From: an uncultured Candidatus Peribacteria bacterium
GTDB taxonomy: Bacteria; Patescibacteriota; Gracilibacteria; Absconditabacterales; Absconditicoccaceae
Assembly (NCBI GenBank): GCA_964633455.1
Contig: CAZWFZ010000001.1
Span: 1-30,271, forward strand
Direction of reading: 5' to 3'
Length of the DNA stretch: 30,271 bases
Shown in pieces: positions 855-24,019 of the stretch. The first letter of the stretch is position 1, and each line of letters begins with the position of its first letter. The notes under the pieces are model-generated. The model saw nothing but the letters and a program-made list of their open reading frames with translations, was not told where the DNA came from and ran no database searches. Both the position numbers and the translations under genes were made by a program.

Positions 855-1787
855 ATGCTCTGATTTTTCAAAAAATCTGCAGAATCCAAAGAATTTACTA
901 CTTTTGAAGAGTGAATTATGCTTCTTCGTAAATGAGGCTGGTCGGATCAACAGATTGAGGAATTTATGAGAATGTCTCATCAAGAAATAGAAAGGGAGGC
1001 TGAAACACAAAGAGAGTATGAGGCAGAACTCACTCCAGAACAAAGACAAAAAGGATTAGATCATTATTCACAAAGCATTTCTGATTTATTTACTGAATCC
1101 TGAAAATTTAATGGTAGAAAAACAATATATGACAAAAATAAGGAAGCACAAGAACTTAAAAAAGAGATAATTAAACAAAAAGCAAAAAAATGTGCAGACA
1201 TACTAGAAAAAGTTTTTTGGTCACTCAAAAGCGAAAGTCCACTTAAGAGCAGATTTGATGTATATGGCACAGACGCTTGATGGGATGCTATCACACAAGC
1301 AGTAGATAAGTCTTATGGTATGCGGGAAGCGGCGACTATATTTGACTGAGTGAAGTGACTTCTCGAACAAAAATGACTTTCAATGAATCGTCCCGCATAC
1401 GACTATTTTGTTCAAAAAGAAAGATGAGGTGGTGTATGGTTAGACGTAGGGATTATAGGTGAAGATACGATAAGGGAAAAAGAAATTGAAAAAAGAGCAG
1501 TCACCTGTGCTAAGGTACTTGAGCATATCTATACTGATCTATCAAAGGAGAATACCGAGGAAAATGAATTTGACCTCTATGAAAATCCCTTCGGTAAGGA
1601 TGCAATTTTGCAGGCATTAGCTTGATACGAAGATGGATTACGTACAGATGAAATATTAAAGAAACTTGTAACTCTACTCGAACAGAGAGGATATATCTGT
1701 TCTTGTCCTACTATTGACTATTTTATGGCAAAACAACTTAAAGGATATTTCTATGTATCCAAAAAGATTGTTGGAAAAGAGGTGTAG
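855..1787 (+). CDS. Hypothetical protein with two tandem ~95-aa homologous domains, 310 aa
   Basis: Open from ATG 855 to TAG 1785-1787 when TGA=Gly; absent from the standard-code track. An internal repeat is visible in the translation. Confidence 0.8.
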
Positions 1788-1906
1788 ACATTATTGTCCA
1801 CTTCTTTGATTTTTGTCTACACAAATTTTTGACATTCTTTTACAAATTGGCTTTTGTAGCCAAAAAATAAAAGTGCTGTATTGTAAAAAAAGAGTAGACA
1901 CACCCT

Positions 1907-3022
1907 TTATTTGACGAAGTGAGAAAATGTAGTTCGCTGTGCCTGAGGTAATCGGCGACGTCCATGTTCCAAAAGGTAATCAGAAGGAACTAGATGTTGT
2001 ATACAACGACGTCCAAGGAGCGAAAGAATAAGACTACCAAAAAGTGCTTTGACAAATACAAATGGAGTAAGCCAAGATGAAGCTTGCTGAAGATATCCCC
2101 CCAGCGAAGAGGCAGAAATAAGTTGTTGTTCGCTAGTTACTTGTGCAGGGAAAGGATGAAACAGTCCTACCTCATGATACATCACTCGTTCCTGGGGAGC
2201 ACGCGGAACTAGAGCCAGCGGAACCCAACCAATGAGTCTTTGGACACCGTGTCGCCAAATGAGATCAGGCTGAAACTGCTTTTGGGTATGCATCAAACGG
2301 AGAGCAAAAGGAATATTGCAATAACTACCCAGGAAATTGAACCATTTTTTCCACCCACTAGGTCTCTCACAAGAGCCAACCAACTGTACCTCAAAACCAT
2401 GATCTATCAGAAGATGATACACATTTTGAAGATACTGTTCCACGCCTCCTAGTGGACAAATATAGTCAGAAACGAGCAAAATACGGCCAGATTGTTTCCC
2501 GAGCAATGATTTGAAAGCACTCATCCACACCTGTTCTGTATACTTATTTGCAATTGTGCGTGCGTCTGTGCGGCGATCCGGCAGCTCTCCATTGGTCATT
2601 TTGGTAAGGAGAGTAAGCATTTGTTCGGTATAGGATCACTGCTCATCCAACTGATACTCTGGGAAAATAAAGGGCATAATACCTCCTTTTGCAAATCCTA
2701 CTACCGGCACACCTAGTTGGAGCGACTCCAATGCACTCATCCCAAACGTTTCCAAGAAAAGAGACGGCATGAGGGTAATATCAGCCTGTTGTCGGGTATA
2801 ATTTATAGCTTCTTTGGGTTGAAACCCATGGAAAGTAACGAAAGGAAGGGAAGGAAGCACTGCTTCCAGCTCGGGCTGCAAAGCACCGGATCAAAAAATA
2901 TGACAATGGACACTACTCACCAAGGGGGATTGTTTGAGTGCTTGCAGGAGTTCCAAGACCAAATGAAAACCCTTCTCCTTAGTCAGTCTCCCCACAAAGA
3001 TCATCGTCACCTGTTGCGTCAT
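1907..3022 (-). CDS. GT4-family (GT-B) glycosyltransferase with swapped domain order, ~371 aa
   Basis: Track ORFs 2636-2881 and 1907-2620 share a frame and join through TGA. N-half has IFVGRLTKEKG, HIFGSG and ETFGMSALE (EX7E); C-half has RILLVSDYICPLGGVEQY. Alternative starts at 3004 or 3034. Confidence 0.85.
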
Positions 3023-3698
3023 GTATTGTACCATTATAAAAACCCACCACAAATTCTCCTTTGCTTGGGATAGTTCATTTCTTCACTTGTTCCAAAATAA
3101 CGGCTACATCTCCGCACGCAAGTTGCTCATGGAGTTTGGAGAGTTCTCTTGCAATCAAGACACGGCCGGTAAATCATAAGGTAATCATTTCTTCAAGAAG
3201 TTTTTGTATTCTATGAACGGATTCATACAAAAAGACCGGGATCGGCGAAGCAATTATTTCACGTTGCATAGTTTGTTTTCCTTTTTTCTTGGGGAGAAAA
3301 CCGTAAAAGGCGAAACGATTGGTAGGAAATCGTGCTGCCACAACCGCTGGCACAAGAGCATTTGTTCCTGGTAGGACGCTAAAAGGTATATTATTTTCTC
3401 GACATAATCTAATAATTGTTTTACCAGGATCTGACAATCCTGGTGTGCCCGCGTCAGAAAGTAAACCTGCGTCTTGGGTGCGTAATAAATTGATGAAATT
3501 ATCCAATTGGTGTGGAGAGGTGAAACTCGTTAAAGAAAAAAATTGTTTTCCCTCGTGTGGTATGTTATATAAATGAAAAAGTCTCTTGGCAGTTCTGGTA
3601 TCTTCGCAGAAAAAAAGCGACAAAGAGGATAAGAAACCTTTGGCTCTGATAGTGATATCTTCGAGGTTACCTACAGGGGTAGGAAGGACATACAACAT
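2979..3698 (-). CDS. rsmI: 16S rRNA (cytidine1402-2'-O)-methyltransferase RsmI, 239 aa
   Basis: MLYVLPTPVGNLEDIT, CEDTR, SDAGTPGLSDPG, FYGFLP, YESVHR. Read-through of TGA 3174-3176 gives RELSKLHEQ and KGEFVV; TAA at 2979-2981. Confidence 0.95.
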
Positions 3699-6022: not shown

Positions 6023-6919
6023 CTATGCTCGTAGTTTTTCAGGATAGTTTCCTGCTTTTACAAGTTCGGCAATATGGGATTGAACGAAAGGTTTATCCTC
6101 TGGGTTAGTAACTCCACATCGGAAATCTTCGCTTTTATATACTGCACAGGTTGCTTGTTGTTGGGTAATAAGTTGATCTACAACGAGCGGAATAAAGTAT
6201 TCACCTCACTTGGTCGGATCATACGTAGACAAAAATTGGGTGAATCATTGTTCTGCAGCGGAGAAAAACTCTGGATAAAATCACCAAAAATTCATAGAGA
6301 CCACTTCGTCTCCAGTAAAGGTGGTTCCTGATTCATCTTCCAGTACTCCTTGATCATTTTTCTTGATCTTGAGGCGTTCAACTATATGATCCAAAACGCC
6401 GTCATGGGTTGCACACACTCCTCTATTTACCGAACCAAAAGGTGAAATGGTGTTACGTAAGGTATACCCCACCAACGCTATACGCTCTGCATGAGGGTTG
6501 CTCAAAAAGGTGGCTATTTGTTGATAGGCGTGTGCTCCATAGAAATCATCTGCATTAATGACCGCAAAAGGAGTATCTATTACTTCCTTAGCAACCAGTA
6601 CCGCATGGGCAGTACCTCGGGGCTTTTGACGTTCAGCTAGCAAGGGTGTATATATTTCTGGGAGAAGTGTATTTGCTTCTTGGTAGACATAGACGACTTC
6701 GACGGACTGAGCAATACGGTTACCAATACGTGCCTTAAATTCATCCGCAAAATATTCGCGAATCACAAACACTACTTTGTCAAAACCAGCACGGATTGCA
6801 TCATAGACACTATACTCGAGCAATGACTCTTCATGAGGACCAAAACCATCCATTTGTTTGAGACCACCGTAGCGGGATCCCATTCAAGCAGCCAACACCA
6901 ATAACGTAAGTTTTGCCAT
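6023..6919 (-). CDS. Sugar-phosphate nucleotidyltransferase family protein, 298 aa
   Basis: LVLAA[TGA]MGSRYGGLKQ, KP[CGA]GTAHAVL, FAVINADDFYG, VSMNFW[TGA]F, [CGA]CGVTNPEDK; TAG at 6023-6025. Confidence 0.92.
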
Positions 6920-8902: not shown

Positions 8903-10210
8903 TTATGAAAAGAGATTGACGAGAACATTCACAAATACGTATGCTACGATCGCTATACCAATACCAATCACCGCGTAGAGTATCAAATCTTGTGCCGTTT
9001 TGAGTGACTTAGCATCTCCTCTAGAAGTCATCAAAAGGAAGCCACCATACAAGAGTACAAGGAATGCTACTAGTCCAATAATAATCCACAACCACTCATT
9101 GATCAACCTAAATATATTGAAAAAACTCTGATCATCTTCTGATGGAGTTAAAATATCCGTATTGGTAACAATATCCCTCTTCCATTCATGGGGAATTTCT
9201 ATTCTCAGATCTCCCCTATTTTTGTCTGTGCCATTAGTTGCACCAGCTGTAGGATTTCCAGCCGTTGCTGTACTTCACGCTGTCGCGGTTCATGCTGTCG
9301 CGGTTCATGCCGTTGCCGTTCAAGCAGTCGCGGTGCCTGCTGTTGCCGTTCATGCTGTTGCTGTGCCTGCTGTCGCTGTTCACGCCGTAGCTGTTCAGGC
9401 TGTCACCGTTCACGCTGTCGCTGTGCCTGCCGTTGCTGTTCACGCTGTCGCTGTTCACGCTGTCGCTGTGCCTGCTGTCGCTGTTCACGCTGTTGCCGTT
9501 CACGCTGTTGCTGTGCCTGCCGTTGCAGTTCATGCTGTCGCTGTTCACGCTGTCGCTGTGCCTGCTGTCGCGGTTCAAGCCGTTGCTGTGCCTGCCGTCG
9601 CTGTGCCTGCTGTCGCGGTTCAAGCCGTTGCTGTGCCTGCCGTCGCTGTGCCTGCTGTCGCGGTTCAAGCCGTTGCTGTGCCTGCCGTCGCCGTTCATGC
9701 TGTTGATCCTCCTCCATTTGAAGCTCAACCTCCACCAGGATTGGGGTCTTGACCATCTTCTATGCCGTCATTATCATCATCTGGGTCTTGATCGTCCGTG
9801 ATCCCATCACAATCTATATCATTGGGAGGTATACCACCTGCACCATACAGACAATATGCAAATTTCACCAATGTTTTATTAAGTTCTTCATCGAGCACAA
9901 TAAATCTTCCTGTCCCGCCGAAAGGACTAGGAACAAGTTGTGGTGGATAGAATCCTAATGCATGGGTGCCTTGTACAGGTCACAAAATAGTTAATCCCGA
10001 ATAGGGTGTGTACCGAAACAAGTTAAAGAAAAGTTGAGAAACAGGAGTCACATCATCCCAAAGCCCACCGTATGCTGCCAAATCTGCTGTATATGACTGT
10101 GCTTGCTCTATATAAAAAAGCGTAGGACCTGTATACACCGGCGCATTACTTGCGGAAGCAACTGAAAGGGAGCTTACCAAAGAGAGAAATCAGACAATCC
10201 AAAGTTTCAT
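8903..10210 (-). CDS. Secreted/membrane protein: signal peptide, Asp-rich DxDxDG motif, (TATAG)29 repeat, C-terminal TrbC/VirB2-like pilin domain, 435 aa
   Basis: Frame read continuously from ATG 10210 to TAA 8903-8905 with TGA=Gly. MKLWIVGFLSLVSSLSVASA start; DIDCDGITDDQDPDDDNDGIEDGQDPNP; two C-terminal hydrophobic helices around GGFLLMTSRGDAKSLKTAQ. Confidence 0.85.
9272..9703 (-). repeat. 15-bp coding tandem repeat, about 29 units (Thr-Ala-Thr-Ala-Gly)
   Basis: Gly codon every 15 nt from 9695-9697 to 9275-9277 (18 TGA, 11 GGC). Exact 45-bp higher-order copies at 9571-9615 and 9616-9660. Confidence 0.95.
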
Positions 10211-10234: not shown

Positions 10235-10690
10235 CTAATCAAAGAAAGTAAGACTACTACGGGTCAACGCAGTGATCAAGAAGATAATCATTACACTTGC
10301 AAGTGCTAACAATAAACCAATAGCTACATATCCTATCTGTTTGAGTGCATCCTTCATCTTCCCCTCATCTCCTCTCGACCAAATAATTTTGAGTCCTGCA
10401 ATGATAATCATAGGAATAGCCAAAATTACTACCAACCTCAATAAAAACCTTGCAAACCTCACCAAAATTGAATCATTTTCTTTGATGCCAAACGCATCAC
10501 TTATCATATCACTATTGGTTGTATAAAACAGATCTCCAGCTTCTGCATCAGCAGAATATGGGTCCTGTTGATTATTATGTGATTCAAAATATGCATCCTT
10601 GAGCCAATCATCTACTGCCAGGACAGAAGTAGACATAGTCAACCCAGCGAAGAAGAGAAAACACAAAAGTAAATAACGCATTCGTAACAT
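10235..10690 (-). CDS. TrbC/VirB2-like pilin (CPR-type), ~151 aa
   Basis: Signal-like N-terminus, then two TM helices flanking AGLKIIWSRGDEGKMKDALKQI, the same layout as the C-terminal domain of the downstream gene. Start 10690 or 10681. Confidence 0.75.
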   Translation of the reverse strand: MLRMRYLLLCFLFFAGLTMSTSVLAVDDWLKDAYFESHNNQQDPYSADAEAGDLFYTTNSDMISDAFGIKENDSILVRFARFLLRLVVILAIPMIIIAGLKIIWSRGDEGKMKDALKQIGYVAIGLLLALASVMIIFLITALTRSSLTFFD

Positions 10691-10697
10691 ATAAAAA

Positions 10698-11105
10698 TTA
10701 AAGATTTTGGAGCAATGCATCTGCCTCAGCTTCTTCTTTTTCTTTGGTTGCCGCCTCCTGTTTTTTGATACCTTGAGTCACATCCAAATATCATTCATTA
10801 TCTCGTTGTTGTATATATTTATTTTCAATATCTGTCTTCTTTTGATTGTACTTCTGCTCTATTTCCTGTAATTTTTCTTGTTCTTTGGTTAAAATTCCAT
10901 TCAGTTTAGCTAACTGCTGTTCATTCATCAATGGCAATAAATTAAACCAATTCTGCTTTTCCTCATGAGAATTGAGTGATTGTGAACGCAAGATCAGCGT
11001 AATAATATCTGGCATTTTTTCAATAAACTCAACCGGAATAGTATATCCTTTTGCGGTTTCTTGGACATCTGGAGGGAGAGTGAGTAGTGCTGTTGTGAGA
11101 TCCAT
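10698..11105 (-). CDS. Hypothetical coiled-coil-rich protein, 135 aa
   Basis: Track ORF extends through TGA 10791-10793 to TAA 10698-10700; EEKQNWFNLLPLMNEQQLAKL. Confidence 0.8.
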
Positions 11106-11111
11106 GGGATA

Positions 11112-11312
11112 TTAAAGTGATAATAAATGTTTTTGAAGTTCTTCATCTGCCTGTTTTTTCTCTTTTTGTTCTAGTGTTTGTAATGCCTTTTGACGCTTCT
11201 TGACTCACGCATATGCTGTACGCAACTGACTCATATAGCGCTGATATTCACGGGTTGAGAGTCTTTTGGGACGACCTGCCGAAAGAAATTGTTCTGACAT
11301 ATCACTACGCAT
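11112..11312 (-). CDS. Small basic hypothetical protein, 66 aa
   Basis: ATG 11312 to TAA 11112-11114 with one TGA; abuts the next gene operon-style. Confidence 0.6.
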
Positions 11313-11397
11313 ATATAAAACCTCTTCAAGTATAGGGAAAACTCACCTCTACGTCAAATTTTATTAGGCTATTTTACATAATTTATGCCTATAAAAT

Positions 11398-17432: not shown

Positions 17433-18332
17433 ATGGAATATTACCTCAAAGGGTATTATGGCTACAAAAATCTCTGAGATGAACTCCTCTTGTTTGGAGT
17501 ACTTTCTTGGTTGGCTAACGAAGGAGAGGCTAAAAAAATTGTCATCGAATCAGGAGATCCTATCCGACTTACGCAGTGGCTCAAAAGACATCATGCAATG
17601 ATGCCAGTTGGAGTAGAAGTATATTGTGTCGGAAATAATAGTTCAGATATCTATAAAAAATATCACTTAGTTTTGGGATGAGGAGAGGTGCTGACCGATG
17701 CAAGGAGATTTCCTTATGGTGGATGGAATTACCTTATCAAACATTTTTGGCGTATTGTATTTGGAAAATTTTCACTCCTTGGCTGAATTGGTCGCCCAAG
17801 AATATTGACTACCAGACTCCTCTATTGGTTTATGCTTCCGAGAGCTAAACATATAGTAGTGAGAGATAAAGACTCTTTTGCCCTAGCATACATGTATCAT
17901 GATAATCCAATTTTTAGTGGAGACTTTGCCTATCCTATCGTCGAAAAAATTTTGGTGGAGAAAGATGAATGAGTCCCCTACAATATCATTAATCTCAACC
18001 CCTACAAACGAGATAGTTCGAGCAAGAAAAAGGTTGCAGAAATTATAGAAAGTCGTGGTGGAGATTGGATATTTATTGCAGGAGATGTGGGTGAAGATAT
18101 TCCACTATATCGTGAGTTGCAGGTATCTATGGAAACTATTTCCTTGTTTGATTGGACTTCCCATACGCTACGCGAAACCATTTCATTCTTAGCATCTGCC
18201 AAATACGGTTTAGCTACGAGATTACATATTCTTCTTCTGTTGCAGTTTTTTCATATTCCCCTTTCTCCGCTCGTCTACCAAGAGAAAATTACCAAAGTAT
18301 TAGGTATTCAAGAAGATACACCCACCCTCTAA
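17433..18332 (+). CDS. Polysaccharide pyruvyltransferase (CsaB-like), 299 aa
   Basis: GYYGYKNL[TGA]DELLL, VLG[TGA]GEVLTD, IVVRDKDS; TAA at 18330-18332. Confidence 0.85.
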
Positions 18333-20009: not shown

Positions 20010-20385
20010 CCCTGTCATGTCAGACAGAAATAGTCGTCAACTAGTCGTGTTTTGTCAGTCATTATCTGTCTTATTTTAGTATTCGCGTTGTGTCTCGTGT
20101 CTTCTTTATTTTCCTCTGTCAATATCCTGGGGTGTTGAGGAAGTAAACACTCCTTCACAAACCATTGTTTAGCTCCCTGTGTATGAACATATTACACCTA
20201 TTTTCTTGGATATAGCAACTAGTTTATGTGTCACAGACTGGCTAGTTGTTCGTAATGTGTTGTAGAGTCGTTGTTGTTCCTAGCAAAACGACCAGTGCTT
20301 TTTTGTGTGCGTTGCGTAGCTCATTAACATCTAGAGACCTTGCATTATGTGAATGAATGCGTACAAACGTGCACAGGGAGCAATC
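20010..20385 (+). ncRNA. Candidate structured 5' leader RNA of the S-layer gene
   Basis: Nested helices: 20172-20185/20368-20381, 20186-20195/20252-20261, 20214-20224/20240-20250, 20267-20272/20287-20292, 20302-20313/20356-20367. Their deviations are G-U pairs in the plus sense. Confidence 0.6.
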
Positions 20386-20425
20386 CTTTCATTATTTCTT
20401 TTTATATTTCTTTAATATTTCTAGC

Positions 20426-23400
20426 ATGAATTTGAAAAAATTCGTAGCAGGATTAACAGCTATGGCTGTAGCTGCGTCTAACTTCCTCGGGGGAGTAGCA
20501 GTTGCCCAGCTCAATGATCCTGAGTTCACCACCGCTCTCAATTGGGCGTATGAGAATGAGATGACCAAGTACAACACGGAAAACGGTTTCATGCCTTATG
20601 CTAACATCACAAGAGAACAAGCTTCTAAATTTGTTGATGTGTATGCTATGACCAACTTGTGTCTTTCTCCTGATGCTGATATGGATTGTGATTTCAGCGA
20701 CATCCCTGCAGACGAGTCTTTGGACGAGTATGTAATGTTGTCTTGCCAACTTGGTCTCTTCAAGGGATCAAATGGTAAATTTATGCCAACAGCGCAACTT
20801 ACTAAAGCTCAATTGCTCGCGGTTCTCGTAAGAGCAATCAAAGCAGCAGCTGGTGAAGAGCCTGTATCTGAGGATGCAACTCCTTGGTGGTCTAACTACT
20901 TTACTGAAGCAAAAGAACTCGGCTTGACTAAGGAAACCAATGTAAACGCATTGGATAAGCCTGTGACAAGATATGAGACACTTTTGATGATGTATAGAGC
21001 TAGAATCGAAGATCAATGTAGCACTACTAGTGATGATATCACTGACTTGCTCAAAGATCTCTTCGGTGATGACACAGACACAGACAACGGTACTGGTGAT
21101 GTAGCTCCTACATCTGATGGAACTCTCGAAATCAGTTTGAGTCCTACGACTCCAGCTGGTGACACTGTTCCTGGTTTGTCTAATGTTGTTGTTGCTGAAT
21201 TCGAGGTAACTGCTACAACTGAAGCAGTTATGCTCAACACACTCGAACTCAGAAGATACGGCATCTCAAACGACGATGCAGTAACGAGAGTTAGTTTGTT
21301 CTTGGCAGATGGTACAAGATTGACCAACGGTAAGTCATTCAATAGTGACGATACTGCTCTCTTGAACTTGAGCCCAAGATTGGAAGTAGGTGTTGGTGAA
21401 ACTCACAAAATCAGAGTAATTGCTGAGATTGGTAGTTCTGATGGTCTTAATGGTGCTAACAACCAACAATTCGTTATTGGTATTGAGTCAGCTAATGACG
21501 TAACTACTAATGGTGATGTTGATGGTAACTTCCCAATCAAAGGTAATGAATTCGACGTAGGTGGTGAAAACGCTCCTGAAATCGAAATCACTCCTGATGG
21601 AACTATCTCAGACGTTCAATTGGGTGAGAAGGGTGCAGAAGTTGCTGCTCTTACACTCGACAACAACTCATCTGACGATATCGAGTTGACTCACATTACA
21701 TTCACTGATGGTGAAGGTAATATTGACGACGCTATGATGAACTTCTCACTTGAATGTGATAGCGAGGAAATTGCTACTACTGAAAACGCAAACGGTGACT
21801 ACTTGAGCTTTACATTCGATCCTTACACTGTCAAAGAAGGTGAGTCAATCGATTGTAATATCTACGCTGATGTAGTTGCTAGCGCTGGTGAAGCAATTGC
21901 ACTCTATATTGATGAGTCTCTCGACGTTATGGGTTCTTCTGACTTCGGTTATGGAATTGCAGTTGACGTTGATAACTATCAAGAAGCACAAGCACAAGTT
22001 GTTGATATTCTCGCTGGTGAGTTAACTCTCGTTGAGCAGAATCTCGATGCTGATGAAGTGAGAGAGGATCAAGACGATGTAGTTCTCGGTGAATTCAAAG
22101 TGATTGTGAACAATGGTCAAGCTTTGTACATTGAAGACATCTCTATGGATCTCTTCTCTGATGCTAATGCTAGCTGAGTTGCATTACAACTAATCTTCGA
22201 AAACTTTGAATTGTATGATGTAACACACAATACAAGATACGACTTGAACAACACAAACGGTACTGGTATTGTATTGAGCGAAGAGAACATCGATATCTAT
22301 CTCCCAGATTCTGGTGAGACTGTTCTCCAAGTTAGAGCTGATACAGTTACTACCTTCCCAGGTAACGTTGCTGATATGGTAACAGTTCATCTCGAACTCG
22401 ATGCTAACCCAGCTAACGGTGACTTGGTAATCAAAGAGTCTGATGACGATGAGCAAGTTATGGACCTCGTTCCATCATTCATCTCATTTGATGGTGTTGA
22501 TTTGGTAGATTCTTCTGTAGACGTTACTGAGATCACATTGTCTGATACTTCTGTAGTAAGAGGTGCTGAGGATGTAGTTGCTCTTCAATTCCAGGTTGAG
22601 ACTGATTCAGTTTCATCTGCATTCTTGCAAGAGATCGCTATCCAAGGTACAGTTAACTTCAACACAGACGTTGTATCTGCAGTTTCATTGTTCAGAGGTA
22701 CTCCTAGTGGAACACACACTCTCGTAGAGTCAAATGGTGGATTTGATATCAATTCAAACTCTATCACCTTTGATAACTTCGATGAGATTGAAGTTCCTCT
22801 CAACTCTACTCAACCGTTCTTCGTAACGATTGATGTAGTTGATGATCCTATGAACGTTGGTTTAACTCTCGCATTGAGTGTTGATCAGACTCCACTTCCA
22901 AAGCTTGATGATGACAACAACAATGATATGGATGTTAATGTAACAAGTGCTGGTTCTAGAACTATGACTATCAGTAACTTCGGTACATTGGCTTGTGACT
23001 TCGACGTAAATGACGAAGAAACAGACATTCCTTCTATCGTTCTTGGTGGTGAAGAATCTAACTACTTGGCTAGCTTTGACTTCAATGCTCAAAACGAAGA
23101 CATTTGGGTAAGAGATATCTTGATTACTGCTTCTCCTGCTCTCAATTTCGTATCTGCATTTGAAGAAGTTATCTTGTCTGATGAAGATGGTAACGAATTG
23201 TACAGAGAAATAGTTACTTCTAATGCTATGTACCTCAATGAAATTGAGACTGCTAGCGGTGCTGAATTCATCATCACTGAAGGTAGTACTAACTTGTATG
23301 TATCATTGGTTGCATCTATCATCGGTAAAAACCAAAATGGTGTAGAAGCTGGTGCTTACAACCTCTCTATGAGTGTTCAACAAGCTGAAGGTGTAAGTTC

Positions 23401-24019
23401 TAATGACGATGTTGCTACTACTATTGTTCCTGTGAACTGTGGTGGTACATCTGAAGACTTTATGTCTAGAGCAGTTGCTATCTCTACTGTTGATCTCGTT
23501 AGCTCAGCTGGAAGTACTAGCTTGCCTACTTACCTCTCAAATGGTGTAAGTAACAAACTCGGTATCGTTAAGGTTGTTGCTGATTCATGGGATAACAATG
23601 ATCCTGCTGATGCTTCAAGCATTAACATTGAACTTACAGGATTGAGAGTAGAATTCGAAAACGGTACTGAAGATCCTGTAGCTGGTGTTACACTGAAGAA
23701 AGTTGGTAAGACTCTTACTACTACTCCACAAGCAGTAGCTGCTGGTACTAATATTGTTGTATTCGACATGACACAATTGTCTGCGGATTCTGACAATATT
23801 GTTCAGGAAGGTCAAACAGTATACTACGTGATCGAAGGTACTCCAGTTGTAGACGATCCTAGTGAATCAATTAGAATCAACTTGTCTGATTTGTATGGCG
23901 CAACCGCTAACCCATCATTCAGTTACAGAGGAGATTTCGTTGGTGCTTTGAGCACTAATGCTATCTACCTCGAAGATTCTGAAATCGATGGTATCTTGCT
24001 CGTAGACAACAACAACTAA
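20426..24019 (+). CDS. S-layer-like surface protein: signal peptide, three SLH domains, long acidic beta-rich repeats, 1197 aa
   Basis: Track ORFs 20357-22177 and 22211-24019 are one frame split by a single TGA. SLH-like segments FMPYANITREQ, GLFKGSNGKFMPTAQLTKAQ, LDKPVTRYE; strongly biased codon usage. Confidence 0.88.

Follow-up and report, generated by a model that had tools for sequence, protein, structure and literature searches.

Read with genetic code 25, in which TGA specifies glycine, many short table 11 open reading frames in the window (the whole 30,271 nucleotide stretch of DNA that we analysed) resolve into long conserved genes. One such frame, on the minus strand, is open over positions 1907..3052, with 381 codons counted from a TTG at 3052, and encodes a glycosyltransferase (GT) of the GT4 type. 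The start codon is most likely the ATG at 3022, since homologues begin three to eight residues ahead of the I-F-V-G-R-L strand, and under code 25 we thus obtain a 371 residue product with the same gene coordinates that a previous, sequence-only reading of this DNA had arrived at (Table 1). Residues are numbered here as in protein P0001, that is, from the TTG at 3052; these numbers equal those of P0002, a recorded protein of 371 residues with 99% identity to the window GT, plus 10. The Gly54 codon is TGA in homologues too, where database translations display it as W. Annotation pipelines give proteins of this kind no label beyond "glycosyl transferase family 1 domain-containing", and when code 11 is applied they split them into fragments.

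It had been claimed that there is no room upstream for a further N-terminal domain, and both grounds given for this, the overlap with rsmI and the TAG that closes the frame, were verified. About 120 nucleotides lie between the stop codon of the GT gene and a convergent gene downstream. With rsmI overlapping on one side and this short interval on the other, there is therefore no space for another GT domain. A search for relics of a tandem duplication, either a remnant N-domain upstream or a remnant C-domain downstream, found none, either in the window or at the other loci retrieved.

Table 1. The glycosyltransferase gene, its parts and neighbours, and two canonical-order relatives. Positions refer to the window unless a locus is named.
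Feature	Position	Strand	Remarks
Whole gene, circularly permuted GT4-type GT-B glycosyltransferase	1907..3022	-	371 aa; ATG 3022 to TAA 1907-1909
Donor-binding Rossmann domain (canonical GT4 C-terminal domain)	2525..3022	-	residues 11-176; PF00534, VIA Z
Acceptor-side Rossmann domain (canonical GT4 N-terminal domain)	1910..2485	-	residues 190-381; VIA Z, PF13439
Join of old termini: C-terminal GT-B helices (161-184) and 5-residue loop	2486..2572	-	AF2 secondary structure
New C-terminus, F-S-H-F-V-K	1910..1927	-	where canonical-order relatives enter the interdomain linker
GRLTKEKG motif	2969..2992	-	R22 and K27 invariant; GT4/GT5 diphosphate-binding Arg/Lys pair
E-x7-E (E101...E109)	2726..2752	-	E101 invariant; second position E, D or N in family
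GGVE loop after N-domain strand 1	2438..2449	-	G202, G203, invariant E205
His293 (MYHE/MYHD)	2174..2176	-	invariant; position of conserved N-domain His of GT4 enzymes
Hydrophobic N-domain helix, residues 328-346	2015..2071	-	Kyte-Doolittle mean 1.98 over 19 residues
In-frame TGA, Gly54	2891..2893	-	conserved Gly of HIFG.G motif
In-frame TGA, Gly139	2636..2638	-	frame under table 25
TAG ending GT frame upstream	3104-3106	-	
rsmI (TP_methylase family, PF00590)	2979-3698	-	upstream neighbour; 44-nt overlap with GT start
Canonical N-then-C single ORF, genome G200	L020 1079-2299	-	407 aa
Canonical N-then-C single ORF, genome G320	L100 909-2141	-	411 aa

Glycosyltransferases have two major folds; in one of them, GT-B, catalysis depends on closure of the two Rossmann domains about the interdomain linker and the C-terminal crossover helix. 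GT4 enzymes are built in the order acceptor domain, linker, donor domain and C-terminal crossover helix. According to the sequence-only reading the window frame instead opens with the donor domain and continues in frame into the acceptor domain, and each half of that claim is borne out. Pfam Glycos_transf_1 (PF00534) matches residues 14-126 (E 1e-20; 74.5 bits against a cut-off of 26.4). In the AF2 model of the full-length protein (pLDDT 86.5, pTM 0.82), residues 11-176 superpose on the C-domains of GT-B enzymes with VIA Z scores of 19-20, the matches including SenB, SdgB, P. abyssi GlgA, residues 199-361 of the BshA-like structure 2jjm and residues 220-389 of MshA.

The acceptor half is less easily recognised from the single sequence: Glyco_transf_4 (PF13439) matches residues 202-280 of the window protein with E 5e-4 and 20.7 bits, under its cut-off of 28.5. 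When the second halves of family members were scanned singly the same profile was found in 11 of 15, with a best E of 3.8e-12. A separate AF2 model of residues 186-381 (pLDDT 81, pTM 0.80) matches solved GT4 N-domains over its whole length (positions 4-195) with VIA Z scores of 11-12; these are PglA (2-176), WbnH (1-167), GlgM, MshA (1-196), PimB' (4-171) and BshA (2-175). The two checks proposed earlier, a domain scan and superposition of an AlphaFold model, thus agree: Glycos_transf_1 precedes Glyco_transf_4, the latter at the level of the family, and the halves superpose on GT-B C-domains (Z about 20) and on GT4 N-domains including that of MshA. Profile hits in canonical order, named beforehand as an outcome that would overturn the claim, were not found. 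We therefore confirm that the donor domain comes first and the acceptor domain second in the window GT, the reverse of the GT4 order, and that the protein is a topological variant of GT4 without the chain order of standard members.

Searches of structure collections gave a concordant picture. A PDB search with the full-family profile returned single-stretch matches only, profile positions 2-177 aligning with the C-terminal halves of canonical proteins; that sequential aligners never pair both halves together is exactly the behaviour a permutation predicts. Sequence-only PDB searches, with each half as a single sequence or with a profile of the second half, returned nothing useful. In the AlphaFold database (AFDB) the protein has a full-length structural twin, A0A2G6GD38 (TM 0.77-0.79), annotated only as a family 1 domain protein. 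The AFDB match at rank 2, A0A523T7G6, a 377-residue "glycosyltransferase", aligns with residues 6-294 of the model, more than one domain, at TM 0.57 and, to judge from this alignment of models, may be another, unrelated permuted or rearranged GT-B.

The position of the break is well defined. AF2 assigns helices to residues 161-171 and 173-184 and a strand to residues 190-197 (R-I-L-L-V-S-D-Y, the opening strand of a normal GT4), such that the crossover helix of the donor domain leads into strand 1 of the N-domain with no spacer beyond a five-residue loop. At the other end, canonical-order relatives (P0132, P0141 and the proteins of genomes G200 and G320) read ..LPHF or ..LPNF, then a linker of about 15 residues, then ..FGR(L/I)..EKG; the permuted proteins end in F-x-H-F and begin just ahead of F/Y-x-G-R-L. 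The cut therefore falls within the linker between the domains, and the former termini are connected. The earlier observation that the frame stops at TTFSHFVK, where the linker would begin, agrees with where these canonical relatives place the break. After rotation the same four homologues are colinear with the permuted proteins, and there is one defined breakpoint for the new termini. The expression "natural domain-swapped enzyme", used for this protein previously, is right in that the arrangement is natural, its order being kept down to 25% identity, but the proper term is circular permutation.

Because contigs of metagenome-assembled genomes (MAGs) can be chimeric, and this genome consists of 187 contigs, we considered whether the 3' half of one GT4 gene had been joined to the 5' half of another during assembly. 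An independent Logan contig from sequencing run X1, a wastewater metagenome that is probably the source sample, spans positions 1700-3300 with two differences and is free of joints and loose ends. From a second sample, X2, a contig covering 2436-2703 crosses the fusion point at about 2485-2503. Both extend over 2560-2660, the interval for which confirmation of read support had been recommended, and the misassembly at the junction that would have undone the earlier claim is not found. Moreover, well over 50 genomes assembled independently of one another, several of them as a single contig, have this order, and the junction sits within a conserved, alignable region. An assembly artefact is thus of negligible probability and for practical purposes refuted.

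The frame could also yield two separate polypeptides, by way of an internal start near Met176, or be a decaying gene or pseudogene remnant of a tandem GT4 pair. Relatives do exist in which the halves are separate genes, adjacent in genome G122 and unlinked in G166, G173, G275 and G306, and at three loci of Gracilibacteria MAGs the halves lie in overlapping frames. In the window, however, the frame is unbroken under code 25, and the junction has neither a start codon nor a spacer, as opposed to the G122 arrangement in which the second gene has its own ATG after a spacer of 10 nucleotides. Against decay, the catalytic residues and the full length are kept across the family at 25-77% identity; against a tandem-pair remnant, the flanks hold no leftover N- or C-domain. 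The window GT, being a single ORF, does not have the one gene per Rossmann domain of a split GT-B heterodimer, and separately translated products, another refuting outcome foreseen earlier, are not indicated by the sequence in the window genome, where one continuous ORF is found. We consider such a two-product or decaying gene very improbable. Taken together, these results lead us to read the window gene as encoding a single-chain, GT4-family GT-B nucleotide-sugar glycosyltransferase, circularly permuted with respect to the rest of GT4, a reading to which we assign a probability of roughly 0.9.

Residues expected at the active site of such an enzyme are strongly conserved. In 15 diverse family members R22 and K27 are invariant on the donor side, along with S97, F99, L100, E101, T102 and F103 where E-x7-E begins; on the acceptor side D196 and E205, both around the GG loop, H293, H353, P356 and S357 are invariant. 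The donor motifs align with those of the P. abyssi glycogen synthase GlgA, GRLTKEKG falling on GRF..GQKG and the E-x7-E motif likewise. In homologues the helix at residues 328-346 is amphipathic and rich in Lys and Arg, with K335 invariant; it may be an interfacial membrane-binding element.

When the two halves were folded as separate chains they docked with an ipSAE of 0.67, compared with 0.00 for the best control; the ipSAE mark of this test is reached by 51 of 78 solved complexes and by 2 of 108 mismatched pairs. The predicted interface comprises the crossover helices, E-x7-E, the GG loop (203-218, facing E-x7-E), the His293 and HLVPS regions and the new C-terminus. Part of this docking may reflect the model's memory of the GT-B fold. 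That the halves dock as separate chains is evidence for a normal GT-B cleft, and it makes heterodimers plausible for the two-gene relatives.

A further alternative is that the fold has been kept and glycosyltransfer lost, leaving a protein that binds sugar nucleotides or serves as a scaffold without catalysis. Three observations would fit such a loss: variation at the second Glu of E-x7-E (E, D or N), a highly divergent N-domain and a pathway context that is not conserved. The invariance of Arg22, Lys27, Glu101, the GG loop with Glu205, and His293 in the 15 diverse members stands against it, as does the presence of a near-universal single-copy gene in genomes of about 1 Mb, which argues for a maintained function; on balance we regard loss of activity as unlikely.

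For the permuted, catalytically competent enzyme that we favour, the chain runs from the donor Rossmann domain through the crossover helices and the five-residue loop into strand 1 of the acceptor Rossmann domain, and ends at the point where the interdomain linker ought to begin. The domains are predicted to lie face to face as in any GT-B, with Arg22/Lys27 and E-x7-E opposite the GG loop and His293, and from this packing the catalytic cleft should be preserved and connectivity alone altered. There would be one covalent crossing between the domains as against two in a canonical GT-B. We infer that the permuted GT is catalytically active and that the rearrangement came about by gene fission and fusion or by tandem duplication.

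The permuted form is widespread. Sixteen full-length homologues with 28-99% identity have the same order and the same termini. A library of 1.84 billion representatives contains 267 cluster representatives at E<=1e-30, and among the best 150 of these 267 about 110 match in a single stretch over positions 1-377. Six-frame scans of whole genomes revealed a full-length, TGA-rich permuted match in 40 of 40 sampled genomes of the window's own family (f1), in 14 of 16 genomes of a second family (f30) and in single cases in two further families; in other families of the class the match is limited to positions 2 to about 180, which are ordinary GT4 C-domains. Counted as one genome per genus, about 31 of 40 f1 genera have the permuted gene. 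With half-domain HMMs 55 of 64 named loci proved to be permuted, including those of Vampirococcus lugosii and human oral SR1 HOT-345, so that the same order is indeed found in other Absconditabacteria, where the sequence-only reading had advised looking for it. Carriers are recorded as Candidatus Absconditabacterales, candidate division SR1, Candidatus Vampirococcus lugosii and Candidatus Gracilibacteria. At shallow depth, the clades of the gene tree agree with those of RpoB, indicating vertical descent. Judged by these sequence comparisons, SR1/Absconditabacterales and some Gracilibacteria have inherited the permuted GT vertically, as a core gene present essentially in single copy.

Usage of TGA as glycine appears, from the sequences compared, to be very uneven between genes. 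In four f30 genomes (G099, G133, G154 and G225) RpoB has zero to one in-frame TGA, compared with up to 14 in the permuted GT; in f1, TGA is commoner in RpoB than it is in f30 RpoB.

We surveyed connectivity within f1 using ORFs bounded by TAA or TAG under code 25 and a separate HMM for each half. Single ORFs in canonical N-then-C order are present in genomes G200 and G320 (Table 1), and P0132 and P0141 are further proteins of this kind. These four orthologues share with the permuted form the same divergent N-domain (half-profile E 1e-45 to 1e-51), the same C-domain and the same TGA-recoded organisms; they differ in having the N-domain before the C-domain, a linker of about 15 residues at the place where the permuted proteins have their ends, and an extra insertion in the C-domain. 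No genome among those surveyed was seen to have both a permuted and a canonical copy.

Two-gene forms are of two kinds. In G122 the C-domain gene is followed, 10 nucleotides on, by the N-domain gene in another frame, and in G166, G173, G275 and G306 an N-domain gene (about 200 residues) and a C-domain gene (about 180 residues) are on different contigs. Each half in these five genomes is bounded by TAA or TAG under code 25, and in G166 the two halves are internal to contigs of 125 kb and 157 kb. In G122, the C-domain gene that stands alone (locus L021, G122:C6, 910-1830) has an insertion of about 130 residues after the GRL..KG strand, and the canonical-order proteins of G200 and G320, P0132 and P0141 have one of about 25-40 residues in the same place. 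At the Patescibacteria/Gracilibacteria MAG loci L168 (JASDUA010000120), L174 (DNKW01000067) and L180 (CALREC010000066), the C- and N-parts overlap in different frames, which may reflect frameshift errors, pseudogenes or more cases of an adjacent two-gene organisation. Some apparent cases of splitting were discarded: the stand-alone N-domain proteins P0005, P0134 and P0147 are pieces of permuted genes that result from gene calling with code 11, and the "N-domain only" state of G194 and G316 is due to assembly gaps and that of G312 to a contig end, so that none of these three genomes is scorable.

Which form came first is addressed by several trees. In the gene tree the canonical proteins form one clade with support of 100 and a long stem, and the unlinked-split proteins form a clade (support 93-100) among permuted ones; the simplest account of the unlinked split is a secondary fission. 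With three canonical GT4 outgroups added, the backbone collapses to a polytomy, and the branches leading to the outgroups measure 3-5 substitutions per site. AU tests on the gene tree reject neither a single clade of canonical plus adjacent forms (p 0.40) nor a grouping of canonical forms with the outgroups (p 0.60). A rapidly built RpoB tree with f30 as its root, from which the G225 row was dropped as an extraction artefact (branch length 10), gave (G122,(G200,G320)) nested among permuted lineages, a placement that would make canonical order a reversion. We did not retain this nested placement, since a constrained RpoB tree with the G122/G200/G320 trio basal in f1 scores 15.5 log-likelihood units better (p-AU 0.86). 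A DusB gene is convergent with and downstream of the canonical gene in G320 and of the permuted genes in the f30 genomes G099 and G255, and this hints that canonical and permuted genes share one ancestral locus.

Three histories require similar numbers of events. Canonical order may be ancestral and retained in the G122/G200/G320 trio; the permuted order may be ancestral to both families, with reversion via a two-gene state like that of G122; or a two-gene ancestor may have undergone independent fusions in either order, as has been put forward for Alg13/Alg14. Every one of them passes through gene fission and fusion or tandem duplication. A bolder reading, which we think less probable than not, is that connectivity is labile within one family, the permuted, adjacent two-gene, unlinked two-gene and canonical forms being orthologues interconverted by fission and re-fusion, and that the order in G200 and G320 is a reversion via a G122-like intermediate. 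If connectivity is labile in this way, the family offers a natural series on what the interdomain hinge contributes to GT-B catalysis.

Family models gave no name to the enzyme: no NCBIfam model comes near its cut-off for the window protein, and none matches the canonical-order relatives at E<=1e-5. The neighbours of the GT gene vary among relatives. As in the window, rsmI adjoins it in G206, G114 and G218, and a ComF-like gene is found in the window's near relatives; elsewhere the neighbours are trmD (beside P0007), MurC (beside the G122 pair), a PcsB-like hydrolase (near the G320 gene), GalU (beside the GT in G316, E 2e-81), and FtsW with a Mur ligase (near P0014). In the window, 3 kb upstream and on the strand of the GT, lies a divergent sugar-phosphate nucleotidylyltransferase (6023-6919, minus strand; PF00483, with weak AglF/RmlA-like matches). 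This gene and the GalU of G316 may be a clue to the donor used by the GT.

Other window genes touch on the cell surface. A polysaccharide pyruvyltransferase gene (17433-18332, plus strand; PF04230, E 6e-14) is located upstream of a 1257-residue ORF (20246-24019, plus strand) that was earlier described as an SLH S-layer protein. This pair suggests a pyruvylated wall polymer, the synthesis of which would require glycosyltransferases. Two adjacent minus-strand genes (8903-10210 and 10235-10828) each end in a T4SS-pilin domain (TrbC/VirB2-like, PF18895), and a similar pilin-like gene is present near the GT at the P0007 locus (L005 4762-5283). Another contig of the window genome (G000, contig C6, loci L002-L004) has three more GT4-type C-domain matches, at 846-1130, 3053-3397 and 10968-11324, and has the look of a glycan gene cluster of its own, made up of ordinary GT4 enzymes.

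With low confidence, we infer that the permuted GT is membrane-associated and acts in the synthesis of a cell-envelope glycoconjugate or glycolipid from a UDP-hexose donor. It is probably important for the cell envelope of the epibiotic SR1/Absconditabacteria, because it is near-universal in this group, including the cultured predator Vampirococcus and the human oral SR1.

Compared with canonical GT4 retaining GT-B enzymes (PimA/PimB', MshA, BshA, PglA, WbnH, GlgM, TarM and SdgB, and archaeal GlgA), the permuted GT has both Rossmann domains, the Arg/Lys diphosphate motif, E-x7-E, the GG loop and the N-domain His in common. Its C-domain is recognisable as that of a GT4 by sequence (E 1e-20) and its N-domain by structure (Z 11-12). 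It differs in that the C-domain precedes the N-domain, in that its termini lie at the cut linker, and in matching no specific subfamily model. That the linker is cut and the termini fused throughout a large, conserved natural family shows that the GT-B fold can do without the canonical hinge. The normal-order and two-gene orthologues in sister genera are matched natural controls for enzymology, for studies of domain closure and for the engineering of split and permuted glycosyltransferases.

The nearest parallel is the split UDP-GlcNAc transferase Alg13/Alg14, with a likeness also in EpsE/EpsF. The MurG-like Alg13/Alg14 is split in most eukaryotes and re-fused in kinetoplastids (PMC8993221; PMC4973528), and PMC8993221, citing Bickel 2005 and Averbeck 2007, describes Alg13-Alg14 fusions in reverse order in Entamoeba and Dictyostelium. 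Our search of 8.4 million papers and preprints turned up neither a permuted GT4 nor a description of this SR1/Gracilibacteria GT family. The earlier statement that no such enzyme had been described therefore holds for GT4 within the literature searched, but not for the GT-B superfamily, given the reversed Alg13-Alg14 fusions. In both systems a GT-B enzyme can be found as a canonical chain, as two polypeptides or as a C-domain-first fusion, and in Alg13/Alg14 too the donor half packs against the acceptor half by its C-terminal helix. Alg13/Alg14, however, is eukaryotic and belongs to another GT-B lineage (MurG/GT28-like, inverting), and its reversed fusions are sporadic and form no large conserved family. 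What is new here is a topological variant of GT4 that is well established as a family, and, unlike Alg13/Alg14, one in which all of these connectivity states occur inside a single bacterial family.
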